Shown in pieces: positions 26,579 to 57,262 of a DNA stretch of 64,000 nt; the stretch's first letter is position 1, and every line of letters starts with the position of its first letter. The position numbers and the translations under genes were made by a program. This DNA comes from an uncultured virus (IMG/VR IMGVR_UViG_3300043101_000273) (taxonomy: Duplodnaviria; Heunggongvirae; Uroviricota; Caudoviricetes), in the IMG/VR virus record IMGVR_UViG_3300043101_000273; one strand, 5' to 3'. The notes under the pieces were generated by a model. It was given only the letters and a program-made list of their open reading frames with translations. It had not been told where the DNA came from and searched no databases.

Positions 26579-26669
26579 TATATTCACTCCTTTACGATAT
26601 ATACTTAATAAATTGACTATAAAATGTTTTTTACTTGACAATTAAATCATAATATGCTATTATAATATT

Positions 26670-26906
26670 GTAAAGATAACAAGCACCCTTATTTTTAGAA
26701 TATTCTAAAAATAAGTTTCTGGTGACTTCGGGTGATTTGCCATCCGAAAGGTGAGGGTAGCTCATATCACATACAGTTCAATACTGCCGTAGAGTTTTAA
26801 GGTTACACCGAATTGATGTAGTAATCCACCACTCACCAAAATTAGTATATAATATAAACATTCTTTATTGACGATTTACTTATATTTTTGTGAGAATAAA
26901 GTAAAT
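26670..26906 (+). ncRNA. Structured RNA 1; putative Cas12f/TnpB scaffold (tracr/omega-like)
   Basis: Own promoter TTGACA(26635)-17-TATTAT; no ORF or RBS; GC-rich stems TTCGGGTG/CATCCGAA with loop ATTTGC and GGTGAGGGT/ACC-A-CTCACC; ends ...AAAGTAAAT; homologous to the 57.1-kb RNA. Confidence 0.65.
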
Positions 26907-26947
26907 ATTTTTAATTCAATATCGAATAAATGTTCGTATTTAATATA

Positions 26948-27022
26948 TTAAAAAGCAAAATCGTGTGAATAAAGTGGGTTCTTTCTTAACTTATTTTCAA
27001 TTGCCTTTGTTATCAAATTCAT
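26948..27022 (-). pseudogene. Truncated gene (24 aa, MNLITKAIENKLRKNPLYSHD...), DUF2958-like start
   Basis: Full cassette promoter (27088) and RBS, but the ORF stops where the RNA locus begins. Confidence 0.5.
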
Positions 27023-27132
27023 ATTAGCATCTCCTTTTAAATGCGTGTTATTTTTTATACTTATATTATACCACAATTTTTATATTTTGTCAAGCGTTTT
27101 TTGAAAAATTATAAATAAAAGAATTTTATTCT

Positions 27133-27300
27133 TTATTCATAATCACTGTATTGATTATTCAAATATTCTGAATTAAGATAATCAGCCATTACCTCAATGT
27201 TGTCAAGTTCTGAACAACATTCTTTTAAGTTTTGTATTCTTTCAAGCTCTGCTGCCAACTGTTCGCTTGTTAATGTATTAAATCTTTCTCTTACTGTCAT
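27133..27300 (-). CDS. Small hypothetical protein
   Basis: Start MTVRE after AAGGAGG. Confidence 0.75.
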   Translation of the reverse strand: MTVRERFNTLTSEQLAAELERIQNLKECCSELDNIEVMADYLNSEYLNNQYSDYE

Positions 27301-27453
27301 ATTAAAAACCTCCTTCAAAAAGTGTTGTGTTAGATAACCATTTCTTATCTTGTTTATATTATACTACACATTTTATAATTTGTCAAGAACTTTTTTTGAA
27401 AATATTTTATATAAAAAGGCAAGTATATTTATATATACTCGCCTTATAAATTC

Positions 27454-28125
27454 TTACTTCTTAAACTCTTTTAATCCCATACATTCATCTACAAGAAATT
27501 CAAAACGCTTATGATAATTCAAATTTTTGAACTTTGTGTAATCTTCCGCATTTAACTTATATTTAACAGGAATATATTTGTACATTTCAAAACAATTGTA
27601 ATCGGGAATATCTTTAATTTCCAATTTCTTATTAAAAACATTCTTATCTGTTTTAAGTTTCTGTAAACAAGCTTCAAGATTATAATGGGTATCATTTAAT
27701 TTACTATTGATATAATCAACAGAAATAATTTGTGGTAATAAATTAAACTGTGAATCATACAATTTATCATCGCTAAGATTGATTAAAATAATTGTATTAA
27801 GTGTATCATTATAATTATCTTCATTTGGATTTAATAATACATTATAACTTAAATTACTTAATCTACCTGTCAAATATTTATCTAAATTCTCTTTGCTTAT
27901 TAAAAAAGGCATTAAGGTAATATTATTGTATACAATATTCTTCTTAATACTTTCAATAGTGCCGCTTACTTCTTCAATTTTATCCTTAGTATTAAAACCA
28001 GTAATTTTTTTTAATATTTGGTCATTATTATATAAAGTATCAACATAGAAAAACAAATTACTATTTTCAATTGGATAAGTATCAATCTGTCTTGTTATGT
28101 TGATGTTAAATTTTGTTGTATTCAT
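27454..28125 (-). CDS. Hypothetical protein
   Basis: RBS, terminator. Confidence 0.8.
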   Translation of the reverse strand: MNTTKFNINITRQIDTYPIENSNLFFYVDTLYNNDQILKKITGFNTKDKIEEVSGTIESIKKNIVYNNITLMPFLISKENLDKYLTGRLSNLSYNVLLNPNEDNYNDTLNTIILINLSDDKLYDSQFNLLPQIISVDYINSKLNDTHYNLEACLQKLKTDKNVFNKKLEIKDIPDYNCFEMYKYIPVKYKLNAEDYTKFKNLNYHKRFEFLVDECMGLKEFKK

Positions 28126-28175
28126 AATTTTTATCTCCTTTCGAAAAAGCTTTTATAAAAAGTTCTTATAACGGT

Positions 28176-28391
28176 TTATTCTCCAAAGTCATATTCTAAA
28201 ACAGATAATAAAGATTTTACAATATTAGTTATTTTTTCTTTATCACCTACTGCAAGAATACATTGATAAGTATTATATTTTAATTGTTCTGCGTTTGCAA
28301 GTAATAATTTACCATCATTATATTTTAATAACCCTTTTAATTCTTTCTTTACAGATAAAGAATTATAATCATTTATTAGTTCTTGTAACAT
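28176..28391 (-). CDS. Hypothetical protein
   Basis: RBS AAAGGAG. Confidence 0.7.
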   Translation of the reverse strand: MLQELINDYNSLSVKKELKGLLKYNDGKLLLANAEQLKYNTYQCILAVGDKEKITNIVKSLLSVLEYDFGE

Positions 28392-28502
28392 TAGAAATAT
28401 CTCCTTTATAAAAAGAATTAAAACAATCTCGCTTTAAGTATTCAAGCTGATTGTAATTTAATTCTTGTATTATCATTTTAAAATTCCTTTAAAAGTGTTG
28501 TA

Positions 28503-28778
28503 TTATTTTTTAAGCATATTATTAAGAATTTCATTATTAACAGGAATTTCCAAAATTTTTATTTCTGTATAAGTTCCATCATTGCAAAATATATCAATCA
28601 TTTCTTTTGAAAATTTTTTTACATATGGTTCAGTTTTATTTGCATTTTCTTCATTTAGTATTTGCTCTACAATATCTTTCATTGCTGTTATTGCTTCTTC
28701 TTTCGTTGTAAATGTTTTTACATCATAGCCTATTAGTTCAAGACTATATGTAATATATATAACATAAAGTTTTTTCAT
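28503..28778 (-). CDS. Hypothetical protein, family C
   Basis: MK.LY...IT.S......F.TKEEA...M shared with 28907, 32307, 63484. Confidence 0.8.
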   Translation of the reverse strand: MKKLYVIYITYSLELIGYDVKTFTTKEEAITAMKDIVEQILNEENANKTEPYVKKFSKEMIDIFCNDGTYTEIKILEIPVNNEILNNMLKK

Positions 28779-28906
28779 AATTAAGAACCTCCTTATATAA
28801 TTTTTTATTACTATTCATCTTGTTTATATTATACTACTTTTTTTATGTTTTGTCAAGAGTTTTTGTTTAATATAAAATATTTATTTATAATAAAAAAGGT
28901 GAATTT

Positions 28907-29488
28907 TTACTCCACTTTTTTATCTTGCATTGCTATTATTCTTTCTTTTTTAAAAGCCAAGCATTTATATTTTATATCACTTTTTGAAAATTTCTTTATA
29001 TCCGACCATCTTTTTTTACCACCGAACAAAACAGTATCTTCAAGAGTATTATTCATAAACTTATCAATGAGATTGTGAATACCAGTTTCAGACGTATCAA
29101 GATTAAAGTCAAAAAATATATATTTTTTATTATTTTTGTCTATGCCGATAAATTCTTTCGTTTTCATAGAATTCCAAGTAGCAAGAATAATATGAGTAAT
29201 CATTTCTACATTCTTCTTATTATCAGTTTTGAAAAAATCTTCCTCAATAGGAATTTCTAAAACTTCAAATTTCATATACCCTTCATAGTCATAATATACC
29301 TTTACTACATCTGCGTAATCTTGTTGTATCTTTGGGGGAATTTGATTTTGCTCTTCTTTCCTTTTTTCAATTTTCTCTATTTCTTCTTGCATTTTTTCTT
29401 TTGCTTTTTCTTCGGTCTTAAATGTTTCTATAGCATATTGTGAATCATTTAAACTATCCGTAATATATAAAGCGTAAATTTTATTCAT
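28907..29488 (-). CDS. Hypothetical protein, family C domain plus C-terminal extension
   Basis: Start MNKIY after AAGGAGG. Confidence 0.8.
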   Translation of the reverse strand: MNKIYALYITDSLNDSQYAIETFKTEEKAKEKMQEEIEKIEKRKEEQNQIPPKIQQDYADVVKVYYDYEGYMKFEVLEIPIEEDFFKTDNKKNVEMITHIILATWNSMKTKEFIGIDKNNKKYIFFDFNLDTSETGIHNLIDKFMNNTLEDTVLFGGKKRWSDIKKFSKSDIKYKCLAFKKERIIAMQDKKVE

Positions 29489-29642
29489 AGTATCCTCCTT
29501 GTTTTTTAAAAGTTTTTTCAAGCTGCATAATTTTTACCATATTATCCATAATCAATATTTCTTTTCTAAAAAATGTTTTTATATATTATACTATTAATTT
29601 TATAATTTGTCAAGGTTTAATGCAATAAAAAAGTGGGTGTTA

Positions 29643-29876
29643 TTACACCCACAAACTATTATCATCAGTTTCAATATTTATTATTCCACCATATTTATAA
29701 TTTCTATTTCTTAATAATTCCGCTTCTTTAATTATACCTTCAACATCTTTTATGTATTTCTTTGTACCTTTCATTACTTTATCTGCAAAAGTGTTTTCTA
29801 TTGTAATTGTAATGCAGCTCTTTCCTTTTTCACCTTTTGCGTTAAAAGTAGTAAATGTGATTGTTAAATCTTTCAT
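29643..29876 (-). CDS. Hypothetical protein
   Basis: Promoter, RBS. Confidence 0.75.
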   Translation of the reverse strand: MKDLTITFTTFNAKGEKGKSCITITIENTFADKVMKGTKKYIKDVEGIIKEAELLRNRNYKYGGIINIETDDNSLWV

Positions 29877-30089
29877 TTTTAATATCCTCCTTATAATTGT
29901 TTTTTATAAAATGAACGATGAAATATAAAATCCTATAAGAAGTCTTTTTTCATTACAATATCTATTATATCATATCTTTTATTATTTGTCAATATAAAAA
30001 AGGATAAATACAAAAAATATATTTATCCTTTAATGGTTCATTTTTAAACAGTTATTTTTAATAATTTCTTTTCTAATAATTTTTAATAA

Positions 30090-30326
30090 TTAAATTACTG
30101 TAATAATTTTCCCTTTATTATATTCAACATTAGTAGTTTTATCTTCTTCATCAATTAGTATTTCAACAACTAGCCAATTTTTTATATTTTCCATTGTTTT
30201 TAAATCTTTTGCTTTTCCTCGCCAAAGAACTTTATTTTTTTTAGTATGAGCTTTTACTGTAATTTGGCGAGTTTCACTTGCTGTACCGTTTATACATATA
30301 ATTTTGGCTAAGTCTAACAAATACAT
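30090..30326 (-). CDS. Hypothetical protein
   Basis: Promoter, RBS. Confidence 0.75.
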   Translation of the reverse strand: MYLLDLAKIICINGTASETRQITVKAHTKKNKVLWRGKAKDLKTMENIKNWLVVEILIDEEDKTTNVEYNKGKIITVI

Positions 30327-30420
30327 ATATCTACCTTCTTTCTAAATACTTCTATTATTTGTTTAACGCTTATTGTATCATATTTCTTAATCATTTGTCA
30401 ATAAGCATTTGATATTTTTA

Positions 30421-30702
30421 TTAAAAGAATTTATCAAAAAATCTTTCAATAACTAAATCATTCATATATTTACAATTAAAATCATTATTAACTACACTTG
30501 TTTTATCTTTGTCGAGAAATAAATAAGTATATTCTTCTTTAACTGCATTATACTCAACAAACATAATTGCTTTTGTATTATAAATCTTTTTTATTTCACT
30601 GGGTAGATTTAAGTATGCACAAAAAATACCTTTTTTTAAATCTGCCGTATCATAGTAAAAATCTTTTTTATTTATCTTCTTTAGTAACTCTAAACTTAGC
30701 AT
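30421..30702 (-). CDS. Hypothetical protein
   Basis: Start MLSLE after AAGGAG. Confidence 0.7.
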   Translation of the reverse strand: MLSLELLKKINKKDFYYDTADLKKGIFCAYLNLPSEIKKIYNTKAIMFVEYNAVKEEYTYLFLDKDKTSVVNNDFNCKYMNDLVIERFFDKFF

Positions 30703-30715
30703 AAAAATTCTCCTT

Positions 30716-30982
30716 TTAATGAAAAGCAATCCACACAGACGGATAGTCATAATCGCTATCCATATGAAAACTTTCTACATTGATTTCAAAGTATTCAGAT
30801 AAAATTCTTGTTATTTTAGAATTTAACATAGATTCACCGTTTTCATAATAAACATATAATCCATCTTCTTCAATTGTTACTTTAATATTTTCACCATTAT
30901 AGATTTCTTCCATAATGTTTTTAAATGTATTAAAATCAATAGTAATACATTTTTTTAGCATATATTCTTTTACATTTTTCAA
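30716..30982 (-). CDS. Hypothetical protein resembling the C-terminal half of 31096
   Basis: TTG start + RBS; I...LS.(Y/F)......H.......WI. Confidence 0.75.
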   Translation of the reverse strand: MKNVKEYMLKKCITIDFNTFKNIMEEIYNGENIKVTIEEDGLYVYYENGESMLNSKITRILSEYFEINVESFHMDSDYDYPSVWIAFH

Positions 30983-31095
30983 TATTAAATATCTCCTTTC
31001 TATAAAAAATCTTTTTTATAAATACCATTTTTAAAAAATTGTTAAAAAAGGGATTGTTGGAAATAATGTTTATTTAACAATCCCCTTATAAGCAA

Positions 31096-31662
31096 TTATT
31101 CTTTTACTTCAATCCAAAATTCCTTATAATCAAATCCTCCATCCTCTTCGTGTTCAATGTGCAACCTAACAATTTCTTCATTAAGGAATTTTGACAATTC
31201 TCTAACAATATATGAATATGATATTTCTTCGTTGTTTTCATTATAAAAACATACATCTCCGTTTTCTTTTTCTTTTATTTCAATATCTTCATAATCAAAA
31301 ATCCTAGATAGTATATCTTCAAACCACAGCAACGGACTTATAATTGTTGGTTCTGTTGCATAACGATGTCTTAAAAAATAACTATCACAATCCTTTAATG
31401 TCATACAATTTTTAATTTTATAACCATCATTTTTAAGGGTTTCGATAGATACTTCTTCATTTATGAGTTCAAAATCATCATTTTTACAATAAGAACAACA
31501 GCACGTACAAGTTTCGTCATCTTCTTCGGTAAAATCCCATATATCAGTATTAATAAGCAACATTAAACTGCCGCATTTTTTACATTTGTAAAGCTTACCT
31601 GTCATAGTTTCATCATCACGATTATAATTACAATATACATTTACTATATCTTTTTTCATCAT
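31096..31662 (-). CDS. Zn-ribbon protein; fusion of 31754-like and 30716-like domains
   Basis: M.K..V.VY...C..CG.LML...C..C....LE.L.N.GY.I N-terminus. Confidence 0.8.
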   Translation of the reverse strand: MMKKDIVNVYCNYNRDDETMTGKLYKCKKCGSLMLLINTDIWDFTEEDDETCTCCCSYCKNDDFELINEEVSIETLKNDGYKIKNCMTLKDCDSYFLRHRYATEPTIISPLLWFEDILSRIFDYEDIEIKEKENGDVCFYNENNEEISYSYIVRELSKFLNEEIVRLHIEHEEDGGFDYKEFWIEVKE

Positions 31663-31753
31663 AAATTATTTTCCACCCTTCAAATTTTCAAGTTACGGGA
31701 TTGCCAATAATTAATAATTCTTACAATATTAACAATCCCTACAAAATATTTAA

Positions 31754-31972
31754 TTACTGAATTTCAATTATATAACCTTCGTTTTCAAGTTCTTCAAGTG
31801 TTGCTTCCTGTCTATCGTCTGCCCATTCGAGATTTTCACTTTCACAATCTCCGCAAGCTGTACCACCCAACTGCATAAGCATAAGACAACCGCAATCATT
31901 ACATCTTACAAAATCGCCTAAATGATTTTTATTCAATTCATCAATATAAACCTTTACTACTTCTTTAATCAT
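31754..31972 (-). CDS. Small Zn-ribbon protein
   Basis: CNDCG..ML...ACGDC. Confidence 0.8.
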   Translation of the reverse strand: MIKEVVKVYIDELNKNHLGDFVRCNDCGCLMLMQLGGTACGDCESENLEWADDRQEATLEELENEGYIIEIQ

Positions 31973-32306
31973 AATTAAATCCTCCTTTAAAAATCCTTTT
32001 TATTGTGTGTGATTGACTTGAATTGTTCTCAACTCTTATCTTGTTATTATTATACTACATTTTTTATAATTTGTCAAGTGTTTTTTTGAAAAATATAATT
32101 TTTTAAATGAGAGGATTATTAAATATTTTATGTTTTATACCTGTTCTAAACTGCATTAAATATTTAATAAAGAATTATATAACAAAACAGGTAATCCGTC
32201 TTAAAATGCAAAATAAGTATATATAACGCTATATATAAATTATTAAAACAAGCAAAAAGTATTATTTAGAATAAATAAAAAAGGGTGAATAAATCACCCT
32301 TTAATT

Positions 32307-32603
32307 TTAAATTTCTACCAAACCAAATCTTGTATTTGCATCAAGCCTAGTTTCTAATATTCTTATATCTATATAATCCATTCCATACTCAACATCTTCC
32401 ACAGGCATATAGAACAATTTCTTATGTTTTTTGTTTATTTCTTGAACATATGGTGTATATCCGCTTTCTTTCTGTTGCTGCTGTACTATATTATCAATCA
32501 TTTCATTCATAGATTGAATTGCTTCTTCTTTTGTTAAAAAGCCTATTGTTTTATAATCTTCATCAAAAGTATGAGTAATTGTAAGTAAATATAAAATTTT
32601 CAT
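32307..32603 (-). CDS. Hypothetical protein, family C
   Basis: Paralog of 63484. Confidence 0.8.
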   Translation of the reverse strand: MKILYLLTITHTFDEDYKTIGFLTKEEAIQSMNEMIDNIVQQQQKESGYTPYVQEINKKHKKLFYMPVEDVEYGMDYIDIRILETRLDANTRFGLVEI

Positions 32604-32902
32604 AAATAAATCCTCCTTTAATTTCCTACTTTATTATGTGTATTTTAAACTCGAATTATATTTAGCTCTTAACTTGTTTATATTATACCATATATTTTAT
32701 TGTTTGTCAAGTTGTTTTTGAAAATTGGATTATAAATATTTTACAAATAAATTATCTAAGAATTTATTAAACAATTTATTATAAGGAATAATATTTAATT
32801 GTCCGTATAAGTATTTATAAAAAGTTACATTATTAAATAATAAAATAAGAATATTTTAGAAAATGAAAAAGGGTAGATTTTTTCTACCCTTTATAAATTA
32901 AC

Positions 32903-33679
32903 TTAATTATCTTTTTCTATCATCTCTCTTCGTATTTTTCTCATTTTATTAGCACTAAATTCAAATTTAGCATACCTTGATATATCTAAAGAATTTTTCA
33001 TTCCCAATCTTATTTGTTTCATTTGTCTGCAATCAAAATTAGGGTTAGCGTACTTTGATATATCAATTTTTTCCTCCATTCCTAATCTTATTTGGTTCAT
33101 TTGTTTCCAATCAAAATTAGAATTTGCATATTTTGATACGTCTAACTTTTTTTCTGCTCCTAATCTTATTTCAAGCAATTGGTCATAATTAAAATTATTA
33201 TTTGCATAAATAGAGCTATCTACTCCATTTTCGAGACCTAGTGATATCTCTCTCATTTGATTATAGTCATATTTAGTATCAGCATATACAGATATGTCTA
33301 ACTTTCTTTTAAGTCCTATTACTATCTGAAACAGTTGTTTCCCGTCAAACTTATCCACATAATTAGATAAATTGAAACCTTCTTTAAGTCCTTCTCTTAT
33401 TTGTTGCATTTTAAATGAATCAATGTTAGGGTTCGCATAACTTGACACATCCACACCGTCTTTAAAACCATATGCTATCTCTCTCATTTGGTAAGAATCG
33501 AAAATCGGATTAGCAAGAAATTCTATGTGAGACAAACTTAAATGAGCATTGAAACTGTATATTATTGATTGTATTTGCATATCATTAAAATTACCACTTT
33601 TTTTAAGTTCGTTTAATACTTCACTTCTTAATAAAGGTACTTGATTTGCTCTTTCAAATATTTCTTTTATTTCTTTCAT
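32903..33679 (-). CDS. Tandem-repeat protein (~26-aa unit F...QM.(E/Q)IRLG.....D.S.YAN..)
   Basis: About 8 repeats visible in the translation. Confidence 0.85.
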   Translation of the reverse strand: MKEIKEIFERANQVPLLRSEVLNELKKSGNFNDMQIQSIIYSFNAHLSLSHIEFLANPIFDSYQMREIAYGFKDGVDVSSYANPNIDSFKMQQIREGLKEGFNLSNYVDKFDGKQLFQIVIGLKRKLDISVYADTKYDYNQMREISLGLENGVDSSIYANNNFNYDQLLEIRLGAEKKLDVSKYANSNFDWKQMNQIRLGMEEKIDISKYANPNFDCRQMKQIRLGMKNSLDISRYAKFEFSANKMRKIRREMIEKDN

Positions 33680-34016
33680 AATAAAAACCTCCTTATAAAT
33701 GTGTGTGATTGTTAAGAATTTATTTCTTTCCCTTAACTTGTTTATATTATATCATACATTTTATCATTTGTCAAGCGTTTTTTAAAATATTTTTTAAATA
33801 AAAAAGGAGCATAATAGCTCCTTTAATTTTAAATACATTTATATTCTTTTACCCAATCTTTAATTCTAATAAAAAAGGAATATTGTGTATATGCTTTTCT
33901 ATGCTTTACCAGTTACATAAAGAAATAGTAAATCTTTTTGCATTAGGATTATTCTTATTTATTTTTACAGTAGCTTTGAGTTTTTATCAAAATAGTTAAA
34001 AGCCATATATTTTTAA

Positions 34017-34628
34017 TTAAAATTCCTCTGTATCTTTAGCATAGTATTTCTTTTTCAATTCTTCTACCAGTTTTTCTTGTGTTTTACTAGGCAATGATAT
34101 TTGTTTAAAAATTTCCGACTTTTCTTCTAAAAATCTTTTTTGTCTTATTATAGTTTCTTCATAATCTTTTTTAAACTTATTAATATTTTGTTTAGTTGCA
34201 TAATAATCACAAAAAGGAATTATCACTAAATTTTTATCTTTAGTTATTTTTTCTTTTATTTCATTCAACTTATCAATTTTATTACAATCTCTTAACAACT
34301 TTAAAACACTTAACCCAAAAGCTTCACATTCAAAATTAAATGGTGGTACATATCGAATATAACCCGTACAACCATTAAGAACTTCAAAATCTTTTGTCAA
34401 TGAGGTCAGCCACAAATCTTCGATATCATCAACAAATTGAAACTTTGTACCTGTTGGCACTAAATCAAAAAAAATTTTTTTAACTATTTCAAGACCTTTT
34501 TTGTCAATTATCCCAATACCAAAATCAGACATAAGACTATATTTTTTTATAATATTTTCTTTTTGTTCTTTTGTAAAAAAATTGCTTAAATTGTAATAAT
34601 CCAAATAATTAAATTTTTCATATTTCAT
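34017..34628 (-). CDS. Hypothetical protein
   Basis: RBS GAGGAGG. Confidence 0.75.
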   Translation of the reverse strand: MKYEKFNYLDYYNLSNFFTKEQKENIIKKYSLMSDFGIGIIDKKGLEIVKKIFFDLVPTGTKFQFVDDIEDLWLTSLTKDFEVLNGCTGYIRYVPPFNFECEAFGLSVLKLLRDCNKIDKLNEIKEKITKDKNLVIIPFCDYYATKQNINKFKKDYEETIIRQKRFLEEKSEIFKQISLPSKTQEKLVEELKKKYYAKDTEEF

Positions 34629-34953
34629 TTTTATTATTCCTCCTCATTGTTTGTATGATATTTAATTTTAATTTTACTTAATAATTTTTTTATCAGTGAG
34701 AAACTTTTCCATATTACCACGCTACAAAATAAAAATCCAAATATTTCATATATAATCTTTTTTATAATTCAAGTATATTATATCACATATTTTATGATTT
34801 GTCAATTTTTCTTTTGGAAAATATAAACTTTTACTATACGCAGCAATTAAATATTACGATTAAATATTATAATAGATTTTTTTCTTAATAAAAAAAGAAG
34901 ATAATTGTTCTTATCTTCTTTTTTTAAATTAATAATTGTTTTTTCTATTTGTT

Positions 34954-35373
34954 TTAATTTTTTGTATCGGGATTTTTAAAATCAATTGTTATAGTATGAT
35001 TATATGCAAGATTATCGTGTATAACACAAAAACCGCCAGTTGTTTTAATTTTTAATTCATTAAATCTTTTATTAATAATACTCCTATTCTTTTTAAACTT
35101 CTTAACCATTTTTTTATAATTATTATTTTTAGTATCAATATAAATCACTTCATTAGCCTTACCACAAAATTCATAAAAAACTTCATCATATTTTAAATCA
35201 ATATCTTTTTTAATAAATGTAATAAATAAAATACTTATTGAATTTTTCTTATAATCATAAAAAGTTAGATTGTCACAATAATTATCAATTTTGTTTTGAT
35301 ATCTAATAAACATATCTTTAATTTTTGCTTTAAAACAATCTTCCCCAATAGAAATATTGATTTCTTTTTTCAT
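34954..35373 (-). CDS. Hypothetical protein
   Basis: RBS AAAGGA, terminator. Confidence 0.65.
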   Translation of the reverse strand: MKKEINISIGEDCFKAKIKDMFIRYQNKIDNYCDNLTFYDYKKNSISILFITFIKKDIDLKYDEVFYEFCGKANEVIYIDTKNNNYKKMVKKFKKNRSIINKRFNELKIKTTGGFCVIHDNLAYNHTITIDFKNPDTKN

Positions 35374-36048: not shown

Positions 36049-36071
36049 ATTAAAAACAATCTCCTTTCATA

Positions 36072-38612: not shown

Positions 38613-38630
38613 TATAGTAAAGCTCCTTTC

Positions 38631-39312: not shown

Positions 39313-39582
39313 AGTTAAAACCTCCTTAAAAATTTTCAATGTGTATGAATTAAAATGTTTTTGTTACTTCTTAATTTATTTATATTATACCACACTTTTT
39401 ATGTTTTGTCAAATATTTTTTTGAAAATTTTATAAATAGATTTTTTATGAAATATAAAGTTTTTTATTATATTACAAGGATAAATGTATTATACGCTGCC
39501 AGTATTAGAAAATCAGTATTTATAAAAAATAAAAGGTGGAAAAATCCACCTTTAAAAAATATCTTTTAACTATACTCTCCTT

Positions 39583-48850: not shown

Positions 48851-49021
48851 AAAAAACTCACCTACTTTTTTTCGTTTTACTAATATAAAAATATTTAATA
48901 ATTTTATATTAAAGTTGCAATGGGGGAATAACCCTTTTTCAGAAGGGAGTTCACTTATTTAGCATAAATCAAATTTTTTCTTTTTTTTTGAGTAGCTGTT
49001 TTTAATTTTTATTGAAGGCAA

Positions 49022-49468
49022 CTATTTTTTATTACATATATTTTCTAATAAATCTTTCACTAAGTCATTAGTAGCTAAGTAATAATCGTTGTTTATTTCT
49101 ACATTCTCATATTCTTTTAAATCCAGTACATTATTTAATGTATCTTTATTTAAAATTTTTAAAACACAATTATTCTTATTTTTACCATTTGTTATCTTCC
49201 TTATAAGATTATTTTTCTTTTTATTATCAATGATTCTATCGTATGAATAATTTAATAAGTAATCATCATAGAAATGTAAAAGATTCATTACAATTAATTC
49301 AGCTCCGTATTGTTTTAAAAATTTAAAATCTTCCAACACGATATATTCATCATTCAAAGATTTTACATATTTAATATTATTATCATTTAAAAAATTTTCG
49401 AACTTTTCATCCCTATAAAAAGAAATACTAAATGTTGAATATACACAATCTATTTTTTTTACTTTCAT
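49022..49468 (-). CDS. Hypothetical protein
   Basis: RBS AAGGAG. Confidence 0.7.
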   Translation of the reverse strand: MKVKKIDCVYSTFSISFYRDEKFENFLNDNNIKYVKSLNDEYIVLEDFKFLKQYGAELIVMNLLHFYDDYLLNYSYDRIIDNKKKNNLIRKITNGKNKNNCVLKILNKDTLNNVLDLKEYENVEINNDYYLATNDLVKDLLENICNKK

Positions 49469-49758
49469 ACATAGTCATCTCCTTTTATTATAATAACATA
49501 TTTTTTCTTAAAAGTCAAAAAATAATATTAGAAAAATTAAAAACCTTTGTTTGTATAGGTTTTGTTCGTATCGTTTTTTCTATTTACGTCCATTACTCGA
49601 TATTTTTTGGACTTATTGTAAAACATTATAATAGCAATTTATATATAAAAATATTTCCAAAAAACCACTTGACAAAATATAAAAAATATAGTATAATATA
49701 AACAAGATAAAAAACAATATAAAACTATTACACACATTATAAAAGGAGGTTTTTAATT

Positions 49759-50952
49759 ATGAGATTAAATATTTTTGAAACTAAAGTAGAACAGGTAAAA
49801 AATTATATAAATGAAGTGAATAAAGCAATTAAGCCGCTAGGTATGAATATTGCTTGTAAAGTACTAAATAAAACAAAAGTAGTAGTTGTAAAAGATAATA
49901 ATGAAGATATAACAATTAATTGTGTATCTTTGAGTATTACAACATCTTCTTTGAAGAGTGAAGATTGGAAACTTATAGGAACAATACAACATACTGATAA
50001 TGGTAATATTGTAACTTGTTTTCAAAAGAATCCATTATCAGAAATTTATAATGTAGCACCTTACATTTGTGATTTCTGTGACGATATTTCTAATAGAAAT
50101 GTATCTTTCATTATTAAGAATGTTAAGAATGACAAAGAAGAAAAACAGGTATGCTATGATTGTTTAAAAAATTATGCTAAAATAAATAATAAAAAAGCTT
50201 TTATAATAATGCAAATATTCAATAAATTGCTAAAATTTGAACATTTCAACAAAGAAGAAATTATCAAAAATCTTAATTATATTGATGTTAAATTAATGCT
50301 TAAAATTGTCAACTTTGTGACCAATAAATATGGTTTTGTTAAAGCTAAAGAAAAAAATCCTACAAAAGATATTGTTTTTAATTTTTATAAGCAGATAATA
50401 AATAATAATGATTATAAAAAAGATATTGTTACAATAAAGAATAATAATGAAGATATAGTGATAAATCTTAAAGAACAAGAAGAAGCAGTAAATGAAGTTG
50501 TTGCTTTTGCAAAAAATAGAGGTAGAATGAATTATCCGATAATGGATAATGATAAAAGTTATTTTTCTAAGCTTACAAGTGTTTGCAGAACTGATATTAC
50601 TAATGCTGAAAATGTAAAAATCCTTGCATCAACATTTTCTTTCTACAATAAACTTAAAAATCTTAATCCATCGAGTGTCAATAGAGCTTCTACGTATGTA
50701 GGAACAATTGGAGATAGGATTGTTGTTGGATTAGTTAAATGTATAATTCTAGCAACTTGGAGAGATATAGGCAATGAAACCATTTATCTATACAAATTTG
50801 AGGATAGAGATGGTAATATATATGTTTGGAAAACTTATAAAGTGCTAGACACAAGTAAAGAAATGGTTCTTAAATGCACTGTTAAAGCTCACAATCTATA
50901 CAAAAAGCAAGAAAAGCAAACAGAAATTACACGTTGTAAACTTATTGCATAA
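49759..50952 (+). CDS. Phage hypothetical protein with CxxC pairs and a probable C-terminal OB-like domain
   Basis: CDFC...CYDCL; S.YVG.IGDR...F.D..GN.YVWKT...TVK.H..Y....QT.I.RC. Confidence 0.8.
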   Translation: MRLNIFETKVEQVKNYINEVNKAIKPLGMNIACKVLNKTKVVVVKDNNEDITINCVSLSITTSSLKSEDWKLIGTIQHTDNGNIVTCFQKNPLSEIYNVAPYICDFCDDISNRNVSFIIKNVKNDKEEKQVCYDCLKNYAKINNKKAFIIMQIFNKLLKFEHFNKEEIIKNLNYIDVKLMLKIVNFVTNKYGFVKAKEKNPTKDIVFNFYKQIINNNDYKKDIVTIKNNNEDIVINLKEQEEAVNEVVAFAKNRGRMNYPIMDNDKSYFSKLTSVCRTDITNAENVKILASTFSFYNKLKNLNPSSVNRASTYVGTIGDRIVVGLVKCIILATWRDIGNETIYLYKFEDRDGNIYVWKTYKVLDTSKEMVLKCTVKAHNLYKKQEKQTEITRCKLIA

Positions 50953-51157
50953 CTATCAAAAGTATATTGAAGAATATATTAAAAAATATTTTATATAAAA
51001 AAACTTATAATAAATATTTTTACAATAAGCTTTCTAACTAAACTCCTTTATAAATTTCTAGGGGGATGATTTTAAACAATTATCTCCCTAGATTTTCTAA
51101 TACTATAAAATAATTATATATTATATAATAAAAATATTATATGTTGACTTCTAAGAC

Positions 51158-51408
51158 TTATCAACATTATCAATATAGTTATTAACATTGTATGTTAATA
51201 TGTGTTAATAACTCTAGTTTTATTCACATAACAATTAGTTTGAAAAATAAAACTATGTGAATTAATGTTGATAATGTTAATAACTAACACACTTATCAAC
51301 ACGTTATTAACATACTTATTCAGCGACATAGTACTGTTTTTAGTCACTTATCAACATTTTTCGACTTCCCCTACTACTATATATTAATTAATAAAAGAAT
51401 ATATATAC
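51158..51408 (+). other. oriC-like DnaA-dependent origin (DnaA boxes + DnaA-trios + AT cluster)
   Basis: TTATCAACA at 51158, 51293, 51348 and (rc) 51266; TTATTAACA at 51179, 51304 and (rc) 51203, 51275; TTATTCACA 51220; then TTCCC-CTACTACTA-TATATTAATTAAT. Confidence 0.75.
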
Positions 51409-52109
51409 ATGAATTCATGCATGATTAATTCTTCTTTTATTATTAATATTTCTTTTATTATATTTATAATTAATAATATTCTTAGTGAAGTTAGATTAGT
51501 ATATCTATATAACCTATATATTATATCATATAACTTTAAATTAATCAATAGGGATTTTACTTATGTTGTAATATTAAATATATCCAACTACATAAATCAA
51601 TCATTACCCATACTTAAAATCAATTATATTACCCTTGTTTACCGTTTTAGTATAACTTTAGATAAATTTTCTATGTTATTATAAATAAATCAATTATAAG
51701 CCTAATACAAGCCATTATTCAAGTATAAGAAAAATATTATATAACCATCTGCGATAACAATAACCAAATACAACCTGTATAATATAAATCCTATAATTCT
51801 TTTAATTTTATAAAAAATTCTTCGGGTATATAAAATTAAACAATACAGTTGGTGTTACATTATATAAAAATACCTATCGTATAATAAATCGTATTTGCGT
51901 TTATTTGCCGTTGAATGATATTTAGATAGACAACTCTACCATATTTCCTTAAAATTGATTCTAAGGGCAATTAAATCGATTTTAAGGCATATCATAAAAA
52001 CATTAAAGTACAGATAAACAATTATTTAAGACTTTAACCACTTAAAAATAAAAAATTAAAAAAATGATAAAAAAGTACTTGACAAGTGAAATAATATGAT
52101 GTATAATTA

Positions 52110-52225
52110 TCTTGTTTTTAAGTAAACATTTCAATAAGATTTCTGAAAAATATATTTTTTTGGAGTTTACTTTCTCTTTTCTAAAAGGGCATTATATAAA
52201 AACATTTTTAGTGATGCCCTTTATT
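52110..52225 (+). ncRNA. Putative ~110-nt small RNA
   Basis: Consensus promoter TTGACA(52079)-17-TATAAT(52102), no RBS or ORF, AGTAAAC/GTTTACT stem, terminator AAAGGGCATTAT...GTGATGCCCTTT. Confidence 0.45.
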
Positions 52226-52835
52226 AAAGATTAAAATACAGCTGTAAAAAGATATATGGTAAAACATTTAAAGATTTTTTAAAGATTAATAAAATTAAAG
52301 AGACATATATATAAAAACATATTTGTAACATTAAAATTCATTTTATTGAAAATTGTTTTACTTGAAAATAATAAAAATACTAATAAAAAACTGGAGCGGA
52401 ATAACTTATAAAATAATTTAATGATTATTATACAGAATGTTTTATGATTATTCGAAACATTTCATAAGTGTTATGTAAAATAATTATAAATTATTTGTGG
52501 AGAGTAGTTTTTGATGAAAATATTAGGGTTCTTAAAGATACTTTTTGTGAGAAGGTATTTTGAATAAAAGTTTCATTAAAAAAACGTATTTTAAAAAACA
52601 CATTTTTACAAATCGTATACAGATAATATTTGTATATACTAAGACTTTTTAAAAATGCAGCTCCGATATTTTTTGGATAAATTCTTTTGGATGATTATAT
52701 ATTGTGTGTATACCTCTATATTGAAAAACATTCAAAAAAGATATTTAAAAAATTATTAGTATTAAAAGGAATTTTGCAATAAGAAAAGAACAGGGAATTT
52801 ATTCTCTGTTCTTTTTTGTTAGTAAAAAATATAAA

Positions 52836-53246
52836 TTATTTATAATATAAAATCTGATTTAATGGTTTCAATCTTAAAAGAAAAGAACTAGCATTATTAT
52901 CTTTTTCAAAATAAATACAACTATCAATCCCCAATTCTTTAAGGATATTAATAGTAGTTTGTTTATTTACAATTAAATTACCTAACAAATCAGAAAATTC
53001 ATCATTAGATAAATGTGTATGCCCTAATTCTTTATTAAAACTTACACCATACAATCTTAAAACAAATCTTATATTATCTAAATTAAAAGTTTGTGAATAA
53101 AATTTTATTTCTCCACCATACATACTTATATATAACAATAAATAATCTTCCGTACTACCTATTTTTAACAAACTATTATGAGTTACTATTTTCTGTAAAT
53201 CAGAAAAACTAATAATAGTATTATCTTCTTTGTTTATTAAAACCAT
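52836..53246 (-). CDS. Hypothetical protein
   Basis: ORF ending at a terminator (~52785-52817); weak RBS. Confidence 0.6.
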   Translation of the reverse strand: MVLINKEDNTIISFSDLQKIVTHNSLLKIGSTEDYLLLYISMYGGEIKFYSQTFNLDNIRFVLRLYGVSFNKELGHTHLSNDEFSDLLGNLIVNKQTTINILKELGIDSCIYFEKDNNASSFLLRLKPLNQILYYK

Positions 53247-53252
53247 TTATAA

Positions 53253-53534
53253 TCATCTCGCTTTTATATAATTATAGCTCACACAACTTTTATCCCTTGT
53301 ATCATCATACTGTGACAAATCTTTTAATAGATTATTGATTTTTAATAAATCTCCCTTACAAAGATAAGAGATTACTTTAAAAGTTTCATTAGGAAAATAA
53401 CAATCCCAGTTCCAATTGGAATAAATAAAATTTTCCAATTTTTCTTTTAACAATCTTTCAGTAGTAGGTAATTCAATAAAACTTGTATAACCATTGTTCA
53501 AATTTGTCAATTCAATATTATAACTTAAATTCAT
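53253..53534 (-). CDS. Hypothetical protein
   Basis: RBS AAGGAG. Confidence 0.65.
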   Translation of the reverse strand: MNLSYNIELTNLNNGYTSFIELPTTERLLKEKLENFIYSNWNWDCYFPNETFKVISYLCKGDLLKINNLLKDLSQYDDTRDKSCVSYNYIKAR

Positions 53535-53615
53535 AACGTATTTTATTCTCCTTTTACTTTTGTAGAAATATCTTTTTAGAAAATTCTTTTTTAAATTATC
53601 TTTTTAAAAAATTTT

Positions 53616-53987
53616 TTAATACACTTTCCATACACCGTCTGGTCTCATTTTTGCAATAGTTAATAACTGATTTAATGCTCTTTTAGCATTACCTTCGGTA
53701 GGTTTCCAATAATCATTATCTGTATTATCAGATAAGTTACTTATAGCCCTATTTAACAAAGGAATGGTTTCTAATGCAGTTTTACCATCAAAGATTTCAG
53801 CGTAACTTTTTTCTTGCGGATTATCAAACATAGCAGGATTAATAACCTTTGAATAATTATAAGTTACGTTTAAATGCAATTGATTAGTACCATCGGGGCA
53901 ATAAGTACCACCAAACATAAAATGCGGCGTATCAATTGTTAATACTTCTTCCGACACTGAATCACATAAATAAAAATCCCAACTCAT
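53616..53987 (-). CDS. Phage-type hypothetical protein (GGTY...LNVTYNY...DYWKPTEGNA...RPDGVW)
   Basis: RBS AAGGAGG; motif-rich. Confidence 0.85.
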   Translation of the reverse strand: MSWDFYLCDSVSEEVLTIDTPHFMFGGTYCPDGTNQLHLNVTYNYSKVINPAMFDNPQEKSYAEIFDGKTALETIPLLNRAISNLSDNTDNDYWKPTEGNAKRALNQLLTIAKMRPDGVWKVY

Positions 53988-54030
53988 AACAAAAATCCTC
54001 CTTTAATAAAACCATATTTATAGTGTAATT

Positions 54031-54219
54031 TTATCTGTTGTTTATTAATACAATTTTTCCTACACTTTCCCTGTTGAAAAATATAGGTGTGTTATCAGAT
54101 TTAGAGTGTACCCTAACAAATGAACTTCCTGTTTTCTTAACAACAGAAGAACATAATGATTCCCTTTCAGCATTTAATTTTTCCTCTGTATTATGAAATG
54201 TAACAGTGTTTTCAATCAT
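54031..54219 (-). CDS. Small hypothetical protein
   Basis: Promoter ~54294, RBS GGAGG. Confidence 0.7.
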   Translation of the reverse strand: MIENTVTFHNTEEKLNAERESLCSSVVKKTGSSFVRVHSKSDNTPIFFNRESVGKIVLINNR

Positions 54220-54485
54220 AAAAATACCTCCATTACTATAATTGGCTCATATAAATTTTATATTAATTTCATTTTAGCATTAGCAAAATACTTTGTCAAG
54301 CACTAATATTATTTTAACCATATAATATTGAAAATAATGAAATTATTCTTACTATTAATATTATACTACAAAATTTATTTATTGTCAACAATGTTAGTTA
54401 TTATTTCATTAGAATAAAAAGGTAATATAAAGAAATTTTTCATAAAGAAGTTTTTTCTATATTACCTTTTTTATATTTTTAAAAA

Positions 54486-55856
54486 TTATTCAACTTTTGT
54501 TTTAGTCTTTTTAGACTTCTTTTTTGTTGACTTTTCTTTGACAACCTTTTCACCATTTGCATATACAATATTAGTTGATAATGCAATATTCCTCGCTGCG
54601 TTTAAATCAGCATTTATTTTAGTACCACAAGCCTTACATTCAAAATTTTTACCATTTCTTTGACCTTCTTCCCAGTGTCCGCAAGAAGAACAAATCTGTG
54701 AGGTATGATATGGATTTACTTTTCTTAATTCAATACCATATTTAGCTGCCTTATATTCAATCTGCGTTTGCAATTGATAATAAGACCAATTTCTTAAAAC
54801 AAAATCATTAGTATTATAACCTTCCAAATTTTCAACATTGATATATTTAGCTTTATTTCTTAAAGCAAAATCAACAACTCGTTTACTTATCATATGATTA
54901 TAAGTGTTTACATAATTTCTTTCTTTTTTGTTAAAAACTTCCAATGCTTTAAGTTTTTTATTTCTTCCGTGACCTCCTTTAGAGTTTTTCAAATTTCTTT
55001 GAAAACGTCTTTTTTGTTTTTGCAGTTGTGTTCTAACCTTTAAAAAATCCTCTTTATCTCCTAAAGGCTTGTTTGCAACGGTATTATTTGTTGCACAATA
55101 AGCAGGTATATTAATTCCCAAATCAACACCTACAACTGTATTCTCATCAAGTTCCACAAATGATTTAGGTATTTCCAAAGATAGATTAAGAATAATTTTA
55201 TTACCATCTATTCCAATACTACTGCCTTTTATTTGATATATTTTATCAATCATAACCTTTTGCAGAATACTTCTTAATTCAAATGACTTCTTAAAATTCT
55301 TTCCGTTGTCTAAAATAACCTTAAATTTAATTTTATGAACCCATTCCATTCTAAGAGATAAATCTTTCTTATACAAATGATTTAAAAATTCTTCATCGTT
55401 TTCATAATCGTGTTTGAATTTAATATCCCTTCCCCTTGTTAAAAGTGGAACATCTGATTTGTAATTATTTATACTTCTTTCACCATATCTCAATCCATTA
55501 TTTAATGCAGTTTTAAAATCTTGCTGAACTTTTTTATGCAATTGTGATTGAGAATCTACACCTGTTGCAAATGTAATATCTGCCGATGTATATAAAGAGT
55601 CATAATAAGATTTTTGAAAAAGTTCCTTTTTCTCTTTTTTATAATCAGCATTATTCTCATTACAATTATATTTATAATATAAAGTCATAAGTTGGCTCAT
55701 CATAAGATTTAAAGCATTATTTTGGGCTTTTTGACCATCTCTTATAAATTTATATGCTTTATTAACTTCTTCTTCGTCACCAATAGGATAAAGTGCAATC
55801 TTCCTACAAATAATCATAGTTTTACTTATATTTTTTTCTTCTTTATTGTTTTCCAT
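54486..55856 (-). CDS. cas12f: Cas12f1/TnpB-family RNA-guided nuclease, RuvC apparently intact
   Basis: RuvC-I VVGVDLGINIPAYC, GGHGRNKKLKAL, YNH.ISK.VV, RuvC-II INVENL, LRNWSYYQLQ.QIEYKA, PYHTSQ.CS.CG..C..CG Zn finger, RuvC-III NADLNAARNIA; GERS..NYK...PL.TRGRD as in clostridial Cas12f1. Confidence 0.88.
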   Translation of the reverse strand: MENNKEEKNISKTMIICRKIALYPIGDEEEVNKAYKFIRDGQKAQNNALNLMMSQLMTLYYKYNCNENNADYKKEKKELFQKSYYDSLYTSADITFATGVDSQSQLHKKVQQDFKTALNNGLRYGERSINNYKSDVPLLTRGRDIKFKHDYENDEEFLNHLYKKDLSLRMEWVHKIKFKVILDNGKNFKKSFELRSILQKVMIDKIYQIKGSSIGIDGNKIILNLSLEIPKSFVELDENTVVGVDLGINIPAYCATNNTVANKPLGDKEDFLKVRTQLQKQKRRFQRNLKNSKGGHGRNKKLKALEVFNKKERNYVNTYNHMISKRVVDFALRNKAKYINVENLEGYNTNDFVLRNWSYYQLQTQIEYKAAKYGIELRKVNPYHTSQICSSCGHWEEGQRNGKNFECKACGTKINADLNAARNIALSTNIVYANGEKVVKEKSTKKKSKKTKTKVE

Positions 55857-55951
55857 TATAAATCCTCCATATATTCTTTAGGTATTTTTTAATAAAAATC
55901 TTTTAATAACATCTTTTTGTAACAATATTTCTTTTTTTTAACATTGTATTT

Positions 55952-56359
55952 TTATTCGGCTTTTATCCAATAATTACCTATTTTACCTTTTGAACAATCC
56001 CAAGTATCATATACCTTATTGTCCTTAATACAAGTTATGTGATGAGTACCAATTTTTGCAATACAAATTCCTTTAAATTGCTTGCAAAATTCTTCACCAG
56101 TATATTTTGTATTATCATATTTCTTCGGCTGCTTCATTTTAACCCAACCTATTTTTTCCATATATTTCTCAATGCCTTTTTTATCATTTAAACAATAACC
56201 AGTTTCAAGCATTGTTTGTACCATTTCCATTACAACATCATTATAATTTTTCCCAGTTGCTAATGAAATAGCTCTAAAAACACAATCGCCAGTTATTCTA
56301 TTTTTAGGGTTAGCATTGTAATAAGTAAATGTATCTGTATCATTAACTATTCTTTTCAT
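55952..56359 (-). CDS. Phage-type protein (NP....GDCV.RAIS.A...HH..C......DTWD), possibly peptidase-like
   Basis: Motifs; co-transcribed upstream of cas12f. Confidence 0.75.
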   Translation of the reverse strand: MKRIVNDTDTFTYYNANPKNRITGDCVFRAISLATGKNYNDVVMEMVQTMLETGYCLNDKKGIEKYMEKIGWVKMKQPKKYDNTKYTGEEFCKQFKGICIAKIGTHHITCIKDNKVYDTWDCSKGKIGNYWIKAE

Positions 56360-56377
56360 TATTCATTCCACCTTTCA

Positions 56378-56590
56378 TTATTGAAAAAATTTTTTCTTTG
56401 AATATTCACAATGAGTGCAATCGTCACTCAAACAATAATTACAAGGTGTATCTTGTTTACTTGTTATTTCATCAATCTTCTTGTTATAATTAAAGAAGTT
56501 ATCTTCATAATAACTGTTTGAATAATCCTTTTCATAATAACCTTCTTCGTAATAATCTTCCATTTCATTATCAGTGTAAATATTGTACAT
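56378..56590 (-). CDS. Small acidic, Cys-containing protein
   Basis: Promoter 56655, RBS; first gene of the cas12f operon. Confidence 0.7.
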   Translation of the reverse strand: MYNIYTDNEMEDYYEEGYYEKDYSNSYYEDNFFNYNKKIDEITSKQDTPCNYCLSDDCTHCEYSKKKFFQ

Positions 56591-57100
56591 ATAAATACCT
56601 CCTTTAGTATTGTGTGTTTTAATTTAATTATATTATACTACACTTTTTATGATTTGTCAAGCGTTTTTCGAAAAAATATTGTCTTATTTAGAACTTATAA
56701 TTTTATAGTTTATACATTATTATTCATCAATATTCATTATTTTATTCATTTTATCCCGTATATAAAAAGTTTTTTATACATTTTTCTTATAATTTATTCA
56801 TTTATAAAAATGAATTATACAGAATTATTTTTGAATATTAAGTATAAAATATTAAAGATAATTATTGTTAATAAGACGTTGTATTCTTATAAAAATATTT
56901 AAGGATAAATAATTAAAAGTATTTTGCTAAAGAAGTATTAAAAATTTATAAATGAATAATGAATATGAATAATTAAAAAATATACATAATATTATACATT
57001 TTGAAAAAATGAATTAAAGAAATAACATTAATTGCAATGTTTTTAAAATTTTGATAAAAAGACCATTGACAAATAATATATAATATGTTATTATAATGTT

Positions 57101-57262
57101 GTAAAGTTTTTTAGATAACAACCTATATGTTTTTTACTACAAAAACAGGGTTAAAAGATTTATTATTTTTAGTGAGGGTATAAACTCATTTCATATATTG
57201 TTGCAAATATACAATAAAACTTCAAGACTTACGCTATAAATAATAATCTTTTTTGTAGTATG
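57101..57262 (+). ncRNA. Structured RNA 2; homolog of the 26.7-kb RNA
   Basis: Same promoter type TTGACA(57066)-17-TATTATAAT.TTGTAAAG, AGATAACAA, ATTTA, GTGAGGGTA..CTCAT.TCA.ATA; long closing stem TACTACAAAAA/TTTTTGTAGTA and AAAAGA.TTATTATTT/AAATAATAATCTTTT. Confidence 0.6.

Follow-up and report, generated by a model that had tools for sequence, protein, structure and literature searches.

Dispersed tracrRNA-array modules of a probable type V-F1 CRISPR-Cas12f system in a huge phage genome

Cas12f systems are usually described as compact, with the effector gene, the trans-activating RNA (tracrRNA), and the CRISPR array side by side. The long-form tracrRNA of type II-A Cas9 is reportedly a natural single guide, a finding attributed to Workman in 2021. 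Chimeric guides of dCas12f, according to the available text of their description, fuse the scaffold with a repeat-derived part and carry a fixed guide at the 3' end (PMC12259090), and stand-alone repeat-like elements give cr-like RNAs in the accessible part of the work of Shmakov et al. (2023, bioRxiv 10.1101/2023.03.03.530964). In the guide of the RhCas12f structure, a stem with the loop AUUUAG is followed by UGAGGG...CCACUC, and GUAAAU stands directly before the spacer (PMC13186708, supplement). Huge phages are described, in the portion of the survey available, as carrying type V-F variants with conserved catalytic residues and compact arrays (median, six repeats) but no Cas1, Cas2, or Cas4 (PMC7162821). 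We analyzed a 64,000-nucleotide (nt) stretch of DNA from an uncultured virus of the Caudoviricetes (IMG/VR record IMGVR_UViG_3300043101_000273), referred to below as the window, which encodes a Cas12f protein and contains two candidate guide RNA loci, RNA 1 and RNA 2. An initial annotation had proposed an orphan, array-free Cas12f supplied with guides by both RNAs from separate transcription units. We consider it highly probable that a huge phage has a type V-F1 CRISPR-Cas12f system whose parts are dispersed over about 379 kb, with tracrRNA-array modules among them, and that the window holds some of these parts.

The window is part of a 379,029-bp IMG/VR record (G001), with 100% identity over 19.5 kb, and its own 151-kb record (G000) corresponds to G001:32525-183672. 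A viral locus with an identical Cas12f protein (L016) lies on the 379-kb record and is the same phage. The window and the genome record differ at six positions (1-3, 53, 128, and 146), and the other 63,854 bases are identical. The cas12f product matched PF07282 (Cas12f1-like TNB domain) at 3.1e-25 over residues 359-424 and the NCBIfam family guided_TnpB at 2.3e-56. Its closest solved structures were 8HR5 (1.7e-96) and 9NZP (6.5e-85), both over the full length, which the available text of their source identifies as CnCas12f1 and RhCas12f (PMC13186708); the transposon protein ISDra2 TnpB (8BF8) matched at only 1.2e-08. Assignment of the phage protein as a Cas12f1 of the clostridial Cn/Rh clade is supported by these comparisons. 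The RuvC triad D245/E342/D417 was invariant in all seven sequences of an alignment with six homologues, as were C389, C392, and C407 of the zinc ribbon (CxxC...CxxC), and on these residues the nuclease looks active. The three RuvC acidic motifs of the initial annotation are thus confirmed, and so is the position of cas12f as the last operon gene before a terminator: it is the third gene behind its promoter, and the hairpin 3' of the stop codon (-16.3 kcal/mol; z-score, -4.0) is followed by UUUUUAUU. A simple terminator scan missed this hairpin. The gene is single copy in the 379-kb record, and a search of that record for Cas1 found none. Two distant TnpB-like open reading frames (ORFs), 29 to 30% identical to Cas12f, occur in the same record beside two TnpA genes (G001:1773-2141 and 304684-305052), at least 50 kb from cas12f. 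These IS200/IS605-type TnpA/TnpB-like pairs (G001:688-2141 and 304684-306055) lie outside the window, and one TnpA frame contains a TGA stop.

Homologous Cas12f proteins, 42 to 57% identical to that of the phage, were present at seven bacterial and 20 viral loci; the twenty-first viral locus, L016, was set aside from the relatives as the same phage. The cas12f gene of the bacterial relatives has a CRISPR array immediately downstream, and the interval between gene and array in the relatives has a conserved RNA core consisting of stem 1 (CGGnnG-AUUUUG-CnnCCG), AAAG, stem 2 (GUGAGGG...CC-A-CUCAC), AAAAC, and an anti-repeat. A covariance model, R1, was seeded with 16 tracrRNA cores of relatives and none from this phage. 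In the helices of the seed alignment, 98.7% of cells were paired, compared to 80.2% in shuffles; in 8 of 14 pairs both partners change, and the covariation score was reached by none of 500 shuffles. When the partners were slid by 1 to 3 columns, pairing fell to 30 to 43%. Model R1 is specific, as it matched only cas12f loci in three bacterial genomes (11.2 Mb) and recovered all 10 viral loci that had given no seed. Its 37 matches in the 20 viral loci were all beside cas12f on the strand of the gene. The stem 1 loop is complementary to the end of the cognate repeat in 12 of 12 systems, with at least five contiguous pairs and seven loop variants, and such a tracrRNA-repeat pseudoknot is stated as general for Cas12 tracrRNAs in the accessible portion of a preprint (bioRxiv 10.1101/2025.01.20.633832).

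In two AT-rich phage relatives (L029:11409-11870 and L020:2715-3500; Cas12f, 46 to 47% identical), the canonical compact order is retained, with cas12f, tracrRNA, and array in succession, and the loop CUUUG and the repeat end CAAAG form another co-varying pair. Three viral loci with a Cas12f about 49% identical (L025, L026, and L028) have compact units in which the repeat end GTACAAAA is fused with the scaffold and with an anti-repeat:repeat hairpin of 4 bp (L025:5387-5470, 6932-7015, and 11318-11400; L026:11318; L028:7005 and 11318). Up to three such units occur per 21-kb locus, each continuing into a different sequence, and one is set directly before a ribosome-binding site and ATG. These fused units are candidate natural single guides for a Cas12f that is apparently active.

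The whole window was searched with R1 with the filters off. RNA 1 was matched at 26726-26845 over the full model (positions 1-55) with 50.3 bits and an E value of 2e-10, and its membership in the tracrRNA scaffold family of Cn/Rh-clade Cas12f, 28 kb from the gene, is strongly supported. The remaining matches reached at most 21.9 bits and were minus-strand hairpins without stem 2, probably terminators. Among them are hairpins of GGGTRGATTTTTCYACCC with A/U-rich sequence at 62115-62155, 63429-63467, and 39514-39554 on the minus strand (17 to 22 bits, stem 1 only), which are probably intrinsic terminators of minus-strand genes; their likeness to stem 1 may be due to chance. No R1 match was found within or after the cas12f gene, where the terminator hairpin follows the stop instead, and the reported absence of TnpA and of a downstream omega-RNA at cas12f stands. 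The fold of RNA 1 has a z-score of -4.2, and the GC content of its core is 0.43, compared to about 23% for the genome. Its loop AUUUGC can form six contiguous pairs with GUAAAU, one of them G-U. With its own promoter, scaffold architecture, and GTAAAT end, RNA 1 is as the initial annotation had described it, and the RhCas12f scaffold architecture described there was confirmed in the supplement cited above.

RNA 1 is not alone in the phage genome. In the 379-kb record, R1 found five strong units (50.3, 44.9, 41.2, 41.0, and 41.0 bits), of which RNA 1 is one, and one weak match. The four other units have the special promoter of RNA 1, the 5' hairpin, both stems, and an anti-repeat directly after stem 2. 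All five share a conserved hairpin that ends in the repeat-like AAAGTAAAT (AAAGUAAAU), with CUUUAUU...AAUAAAG-UAAAU present in each. In the four units outside the window, a conserved leader (about 95 nt) separates this hairpin from an array. Three of these units lead into arrays of 8, 3, and 9 repeats, with the 30-nt repeat GTATTRATAYTRAYATRYTGGAAAGTAAAT and spacers of 34 to 37 nt, and the fourth leads into degenerate repeats ending in GCAAAA. A conserved 22-mer of the leader ("spacer 0," RATGAATAAAAAATAATRTTTG) was found in the four leaders only. The anti-repeats of the array-linked units form 21 to 22 pairs with the first approximately 23 nt of the repeats, at -11.9 to -17.3 kcal/mol, compared to -5.1 ± 2.2 kcal/mol for shuffles. 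The unit at G001:3944 (L038, G001:3699-3823) has the loop AUUUGC and degenerate repeats that end in GCAAAA instead of GTAAAT, indicating that loop and repeat end co-vary within one genome. A separate idea, that repeat ends serve as dispersed handles, was dropped, as AAAGTAAAT was seen 5 times compared to 8.0 expected.

The association of Cas12f with CRISPR arrays and tracrRNAs is therefore absent in the window and present in the same phage genome. The absence of an array holds for the window and for the 151-kb record, in which a k-mer scan found no CRISPR array; the arrays lie outside that record. The description of the system as orphan and array-free is wrong for the genome, because the 379-kb record of the same phage holds three arrays and one degenerate array, each behind a unit like RNA 1. 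Other IMG/VR records that carry these tracrRNA units are identical fragments of the same phage.

RNA 1 is 80 to 83% identical to three of the array-linked units and 74% identical to the fourth. It keeps 56 of 61 consensus pairs; of 13 changed pairs, 8 are still paired, 4 of these by changes on both sides. The stem 2 strands are identical to those of the other units at 12 of 12 and 11 of 11 positions and the terminal hairpin at 32 of 33, and right after GTAAAT (26906) the likeness falls to 17 of 40, the background level. RNA 1 lacks both leader and array. Within the window, the promoter TTGACA-N14-TGnTATTATAAT occurs exactly twice, at 26635 and 57066 (0.00 expected), in agreement with the reported promoter common to the two loci and distinct from the rest. 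The shared motifs are also present at both: AGATAACAA at 26674 and 57113, and GTGAGGGTA at 26751 and 57172, with one further copy at 13824. The features are listed in Table 1.

Table 1. Positions of the cas12f operon and of the RNA 1 and RNA 2 features in the window
Feature	Position	Strand	Basis or remark
RNA 1 promoter	26635..26666	+	TTGACA-17-TATTAT + extended TG; type common to the phage's other tracrRNA units
RNA 1, solo tracrRNA-family unit	26672..26906	+	Covariance match, pair conservation
RNA 1 5' hairpin	26688-26715	+	
RNA 1 stem 1	26729-26746	+	Loop AUUUGC at 26735-26740
RNA 1 stem 2	26750-26837	+	Has bulged A
RNA 1 weakened anti-repeat	about 26842-26860	+	
RNA 1 terminal hairpin	26874-26906	+	Ends in repeat-like AAAGTAAAT
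Spacer-like sequence (29 nt), sole candidate "guide" of RNA 1	26907..26935	+	Unique; similarity to other units ends
Possible degenerate terminal repeat	26936..26961	+	GTATTTAATATATT...AAGCAAAAT; modest support
Likely intrinsic terminator, AT-rich hairpin + U-run after cas12f stop	54408..54471	-	Folding
cas12f1 gene, 456 amino acids	54486..55856	-	ORF; domain, structure-homology, and alignment evidence
orf135, second operon gene	55952-56359	-	
orf70, first operon gene	56378-56590	-	
Consensus sigma-70 promoter of three-gene operon	56632..56660	-	Promoter scan
RNA 2 promoter	57066..57097	+	Same type as that of RNA 1; motif scan
RNA 2, AT-eroded paralogue of tracrRNA unit	57103..57390	+	Alignment, pair conservation

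In the system as a whole, one nuclease-type cas12f stands alone at the end of its three-gene operon, behind a standard phage sigma-70 promoter, and the guide RNA genes are separate cassettes, each with a promoter of the special type and a tracrRNA scaffold. The scaffold comprises the 5' hairpin, stem 1, stem 2 (GUGAGGG...CC-A-CUCAC), and the anti-repeat, with the stem 1 loop AUUU(A/G)C predicted to pair with the GUAAAU at the 3' end of the repeat. RNA 1 is the fifth cassette; its array most likely collapsed when the repeat-like AAAGTAAAT recombined with a late repeat, so that one spacer and a degenerate repeat were left. Such a collapse is suggested by the end of the similarity at GTAAAT and by the spacer-like sequence of 29 nt and the possible degenerate repeat that follow. 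RNA 1 is probably still under selection, because its core is not AT-eroded, unlike RNA 2, and we infer that it is probably still transcribed and loaded into a Cas12f dimer. It would then either pair in trans with CRISPR RNAs (crRNAs) of remote arrays or act as a single guide with its own spacer, and we regard the two modes as about equally likely. For use in trans, RNA 1 is redundant, and its pairing is weaker than that of the other units. A perfect consensus promoter at 27093-27065 on the minus strand, before a 24-codon ORF (27021-26947, minus strand) that overlaps the possible degenerate repeat, points head-on at the 3' end of RNA 1, and convergent transcription from it could affect that end.

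RNA 2, only 1.2 kb from cas12f, looks like a decayed copy of the same cassette. It aligns with the units from end to end, including the promoter, and its transcribed part is about 50% identical to them. The covariance-model search that the initial annotation had suggested for both loci bore out RNA 1 but not RNA 2, for which the best R1 scores were 4.4 and 4.1 bits in a 301-nt search, with no match at an E value of 10 or below in the window. Of the consensus pairs, 33 of 57 are kept; the 3' strand of stem 2 is lost, with 1 of 11 bases identical; and the fold is weak (z-score, -1.95), 8 of 200 shuffles being as good. Among the changed pairs, 22 of 43 are still paired, compared to about 41% predicted by base composition (an estimate from base frequencies). 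An eroded copy of the tracrRNA cassette is the best reading of RNA 2, which probably no longer serves Cas12f. Of the two loci proposed to supply guides from separate transcription units, RNA 1 is accordingly upheld as a member of the scaffold family, and RNA 2 is rejected as a scaffold. RNA 2 could also be a different small RNA with a new role, which would explain why the promoter was kept (27 of 32 positions identical to the consensus of the units) despite the changed scaffold; one inner hairpin is retained through C-G to U-A changes, and a long alternative helix is predicted. The weak fold, the lack of an Rfam family match, and a share of still-paired changes close to the base-composition estimate speak against this role, which we regard as improbable. 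An orphan Cas12f served only by the dispersed, trans-encoded RNA 1 and RNA 2 would agree with the absence of an array from the window and the 151-kb record, with RNA 1 as a genuine scaffold, and with the private promoter type of the two loci. However, the three arrays and one degenerate array with tracrRNA units of their own in the same genome, and the failure of RNA 2 in the model with most of its structure lost, make this reading very improbable.

For RNA 1 itself, two alternatives were weighed against a cassette that is still in use. RNA 1 may be a natural single-guide RNA, with scaffold, cis hairpin, GUAAAU, and 29 nt in one transcript; the cis hairpin would mimic the anti-repeat:repeat duplex, and an active Cas12f would be sent to one fixed target without any array. 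Its layout is that of the engineered RhCas12f single-guide RNA (anti-repeat, loop, 3' part of the repeat, UAAAU, spacer), the CUUUAUU...AAUAAAG-UAAAU element recurs in all five units, the terminal hairpin is conserved up to the exact point at which similarity stops, the viral relatives L025, L026, and L028 have compact fused units with different following sequences, and single chimeric guides are known for dCas12f homologues in the available text of that work (PMC12259090). However, a search of the phage with the 20-nt flank of RNA 1 at up to three mismatches revealed no protospacer, the one second site having three mismatches and the backwards control giving two. The 14 exact metagenome matches to this 20-mer lie in unrelated contexts without common flanks and are read as chance, the 29 nt are shorter than the spacers of the phage, and the AUUUUU right after the hairpin may terminate the transcript. 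We therefore rate a single guide as possible but somewhat unlikely. The other alternative, a nonfunctional relic of a tracrRNA-array module on its way to the state of RNA 2, would account for the lost leader and array, the internal 75-nt deletion, and the weakened anti-repeat; RNA 1 is redundant beside four other units, and RNA 2 shows that such units decay in this genome. The uneroded core, the intact promoter, the conserved stem 2 strands and terminal hairpin, and the 56 of 61 kept pairs, four of them kept by two-sided changes, make a relic rather unlikely. Several observations nevertheless weigh against a functional RNA 1 or against the dispersed phage system as a whole. RNA 1 is without the 75-nt middle hairpin of the other units, and its anti-repeat forms only 14 to 15 pairs with the repeats (-7.5 to -9.9 kcal/mol; approximately 1 to 2 standard deviations better than shuffles), both possible signs of decay. 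Its hairpin before GTAAAT is weak (-8 kcal/mol; z-score, -1.2), and as the AUUUUU occurs in RNA 1 alone, transcripts might stop there without a guide. The possible degenerate repeat has modest support: the alignment of GTATTTAATATATTAAAAAGCAAAAT, after the 29-nt stretch, with the G001:3699 unit's degenerate repeat had a score of 13, which 4 of 500 shuffles reached, but the scores against the intact repeats were reached by 51 to 178 of 500 shuffles and are not significant. IMG/VR labels the 379-kb record "provirus," and neither the RNA 1 flank nor four spacers nor the arrays had a target in the searches described here. That the phage domesticated Cas12f for anti-host or regulatory purposes, as the initial annotation suggested, is not supported by these searches.

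These searches covered several databases. The array of L039 had no match in GenBank phages or plasmids and no full-length self-match in the 379-kb record. The array of L040 had no match in phages, and in plasmids it gave 8 weak partial matches of 34 to 61 nt with 80 to 92% identity, which are read as chance. In IMG/VR, all four of the spacer prefixes tested (20 to 22 nt) were found in the phage's own arrays only. No complementarity of the repeat-like AAAGTAAAT piece to a cas promoter was found.

The source of the spacers was approached through the repeat. Among 399 scored genomes from the class to which a relative's host belongs, a search with the L039 array matched one, a 1.4-Mb Clostridia genome (G381) with an array of at least 26 repeats (G381:C5:46972-57600; L090 and L093). 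Its 30-nt repeat is identical to the phage repeats at 23 to 26 of 30 positions, with the same spacing of 64 to 67 bp. The array adjoins a complete type I-B operon encoding Cas6, Cas8b1, Cas7, Cas5, Cas3, Cas4, and Cas1b, with 7 of 8 tested ORFs matched. No homologue of the phage Cas12f was found in G381, and pairing of RNA 1 with its type I-B-like repeat was considered and rejected (-5.0 kcal/mol, equal to shuffles). Judged by the repeats, the phage arrays may suit the type I-B adaptation module of a host, and it is possible that G381 represents a source of spacers or repeats or the host lineage. A precedent for adaptation genes serving across types comes from Listeria, according to the available text of a preprint (bioRxiv 10.1101/2024.10.25.620265). 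As the near identity of the phage and type I-B repeats suggests, a phage system without Cas1 could acquire its spacers in this way. A bolder proposal combines these elements: every tracrRNA cassette would end in a repeat mimic and would thus be a natural single guide for an active Cas12f, RNA 1 would be the streamlined, array-free form with promoter, scaffold, cis repeat hairpin, and a single fixed guide of 29 nt, the "spacer 0" RATGAATAAAAAATAATRTTTG of the other four units would be aimed at a conserved target, and the arrays would be refilled by host type I-B adaptation. We advance it tentatively and would not expect all of it to hold.

As a whole, the window has the appearance of a long run of huge-phage genes, each with a promoter of its own. 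Its GC content is about 23%, and it contains 42 near-identical promoter cassettes of the form TTGACA-N16-18-TATAAT (TTGACAAAnnATAAAAAnTnTnGTATAAT), with 0.27 expected. These cassettes, for example, at 11749-11777, 27065-27093, and 56632-56660, mostly occur one per small gene. The window also encodes an NAD-dependent ligase, a primase, and an endolysin-like protein, which together with the promoter cassettes are consistent with a large phage. No tRNA or transfer-messenger RNA was found in the window. An Rfam scan of the window yielded nothing at gathering scores and no more than chance-level matches around both RNA loci, and GenBank phages contained no DNA similar to window positions 54000-58000. 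Of the words sampled from 26400-27400, three metatranscriptome runs contained fractions of 0.34, 0.16, and 0.06, which is not evidence of expression.

The phage system resembles those of CnCas12f1 and RhCas12f in the full-length similarity of the protein, in stem 1 with its pseudoknot loop, in the kinked stem 2 (GUGAGGG...CCACUC with a bulged A), and in the repeat end GUAAAU. In the relatives of the Cn/Rh type, the tracrRNA and array stand beside cas12f on the same strand. In contrast, the phage cas12f is solitary, and the five or six tracrRNA units, which have promoters and in four cases arrays, are distributed across 379 kb. The phage thus splits the system into one operon-borne effector and self-contained cassettes over hundreds of kilobases, and these cassettes are found at three life stages, array-bearing, collapsed solo, and eroded. 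As such, they offer a natural series for how tracrRNA and crRNA fuse into single guides, the transition proposed for dCas12f. RNA 1, without the 75-nt hairpin, would be a compact natural scaffold that could inform the engineering of RhCas12f and CnCas12f guides.

Like the natural single guides, the long-form tracrRNA of Cas9 and the chimeric guides of dCas12f, the phage units combine a scaffold and a repeat-derived part in one unit with a 3' guide position. However, those guides act as repressors or activators, in nuclease-dead or partially matched complexes, on known targets, whereas the phage nuclease looks active and none was found for it. The repeat-like AAAGTAAAT resembles the elements of Shmakov et al., as far as their available text describes them, in lying outside an array next to CRISPR components, and differs from them in sitting in a hairpin within a tracrRNA unit. 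IS200/IS605 TnpB has a related fold, and its omega-RNA is a long scaffold with the guide at its 3' end; in the phage, by contrast, scaffold and cas12f 3' end do not overlap, and there is no TnpA beside the gene. The huge-phage systems of Al-Shayeb et al. (2020, PMC7162821), in the portion of that survey available, are the closest in kind, being of type V-F with short arrays and, as here, no Cas1 found. Unlike the systems described in that portion, the phage combines one effector with several dispersed tracrRNA-array modules and with solo and eroded copies. In the open-access literature, we found no account of one active Cas12f with dispersed promoter-tracrRNA-array cassettes or of solo or eroded cassettes. 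The layout is new, and the kind of system, a phage type V-F without adaptation genes, is already known.

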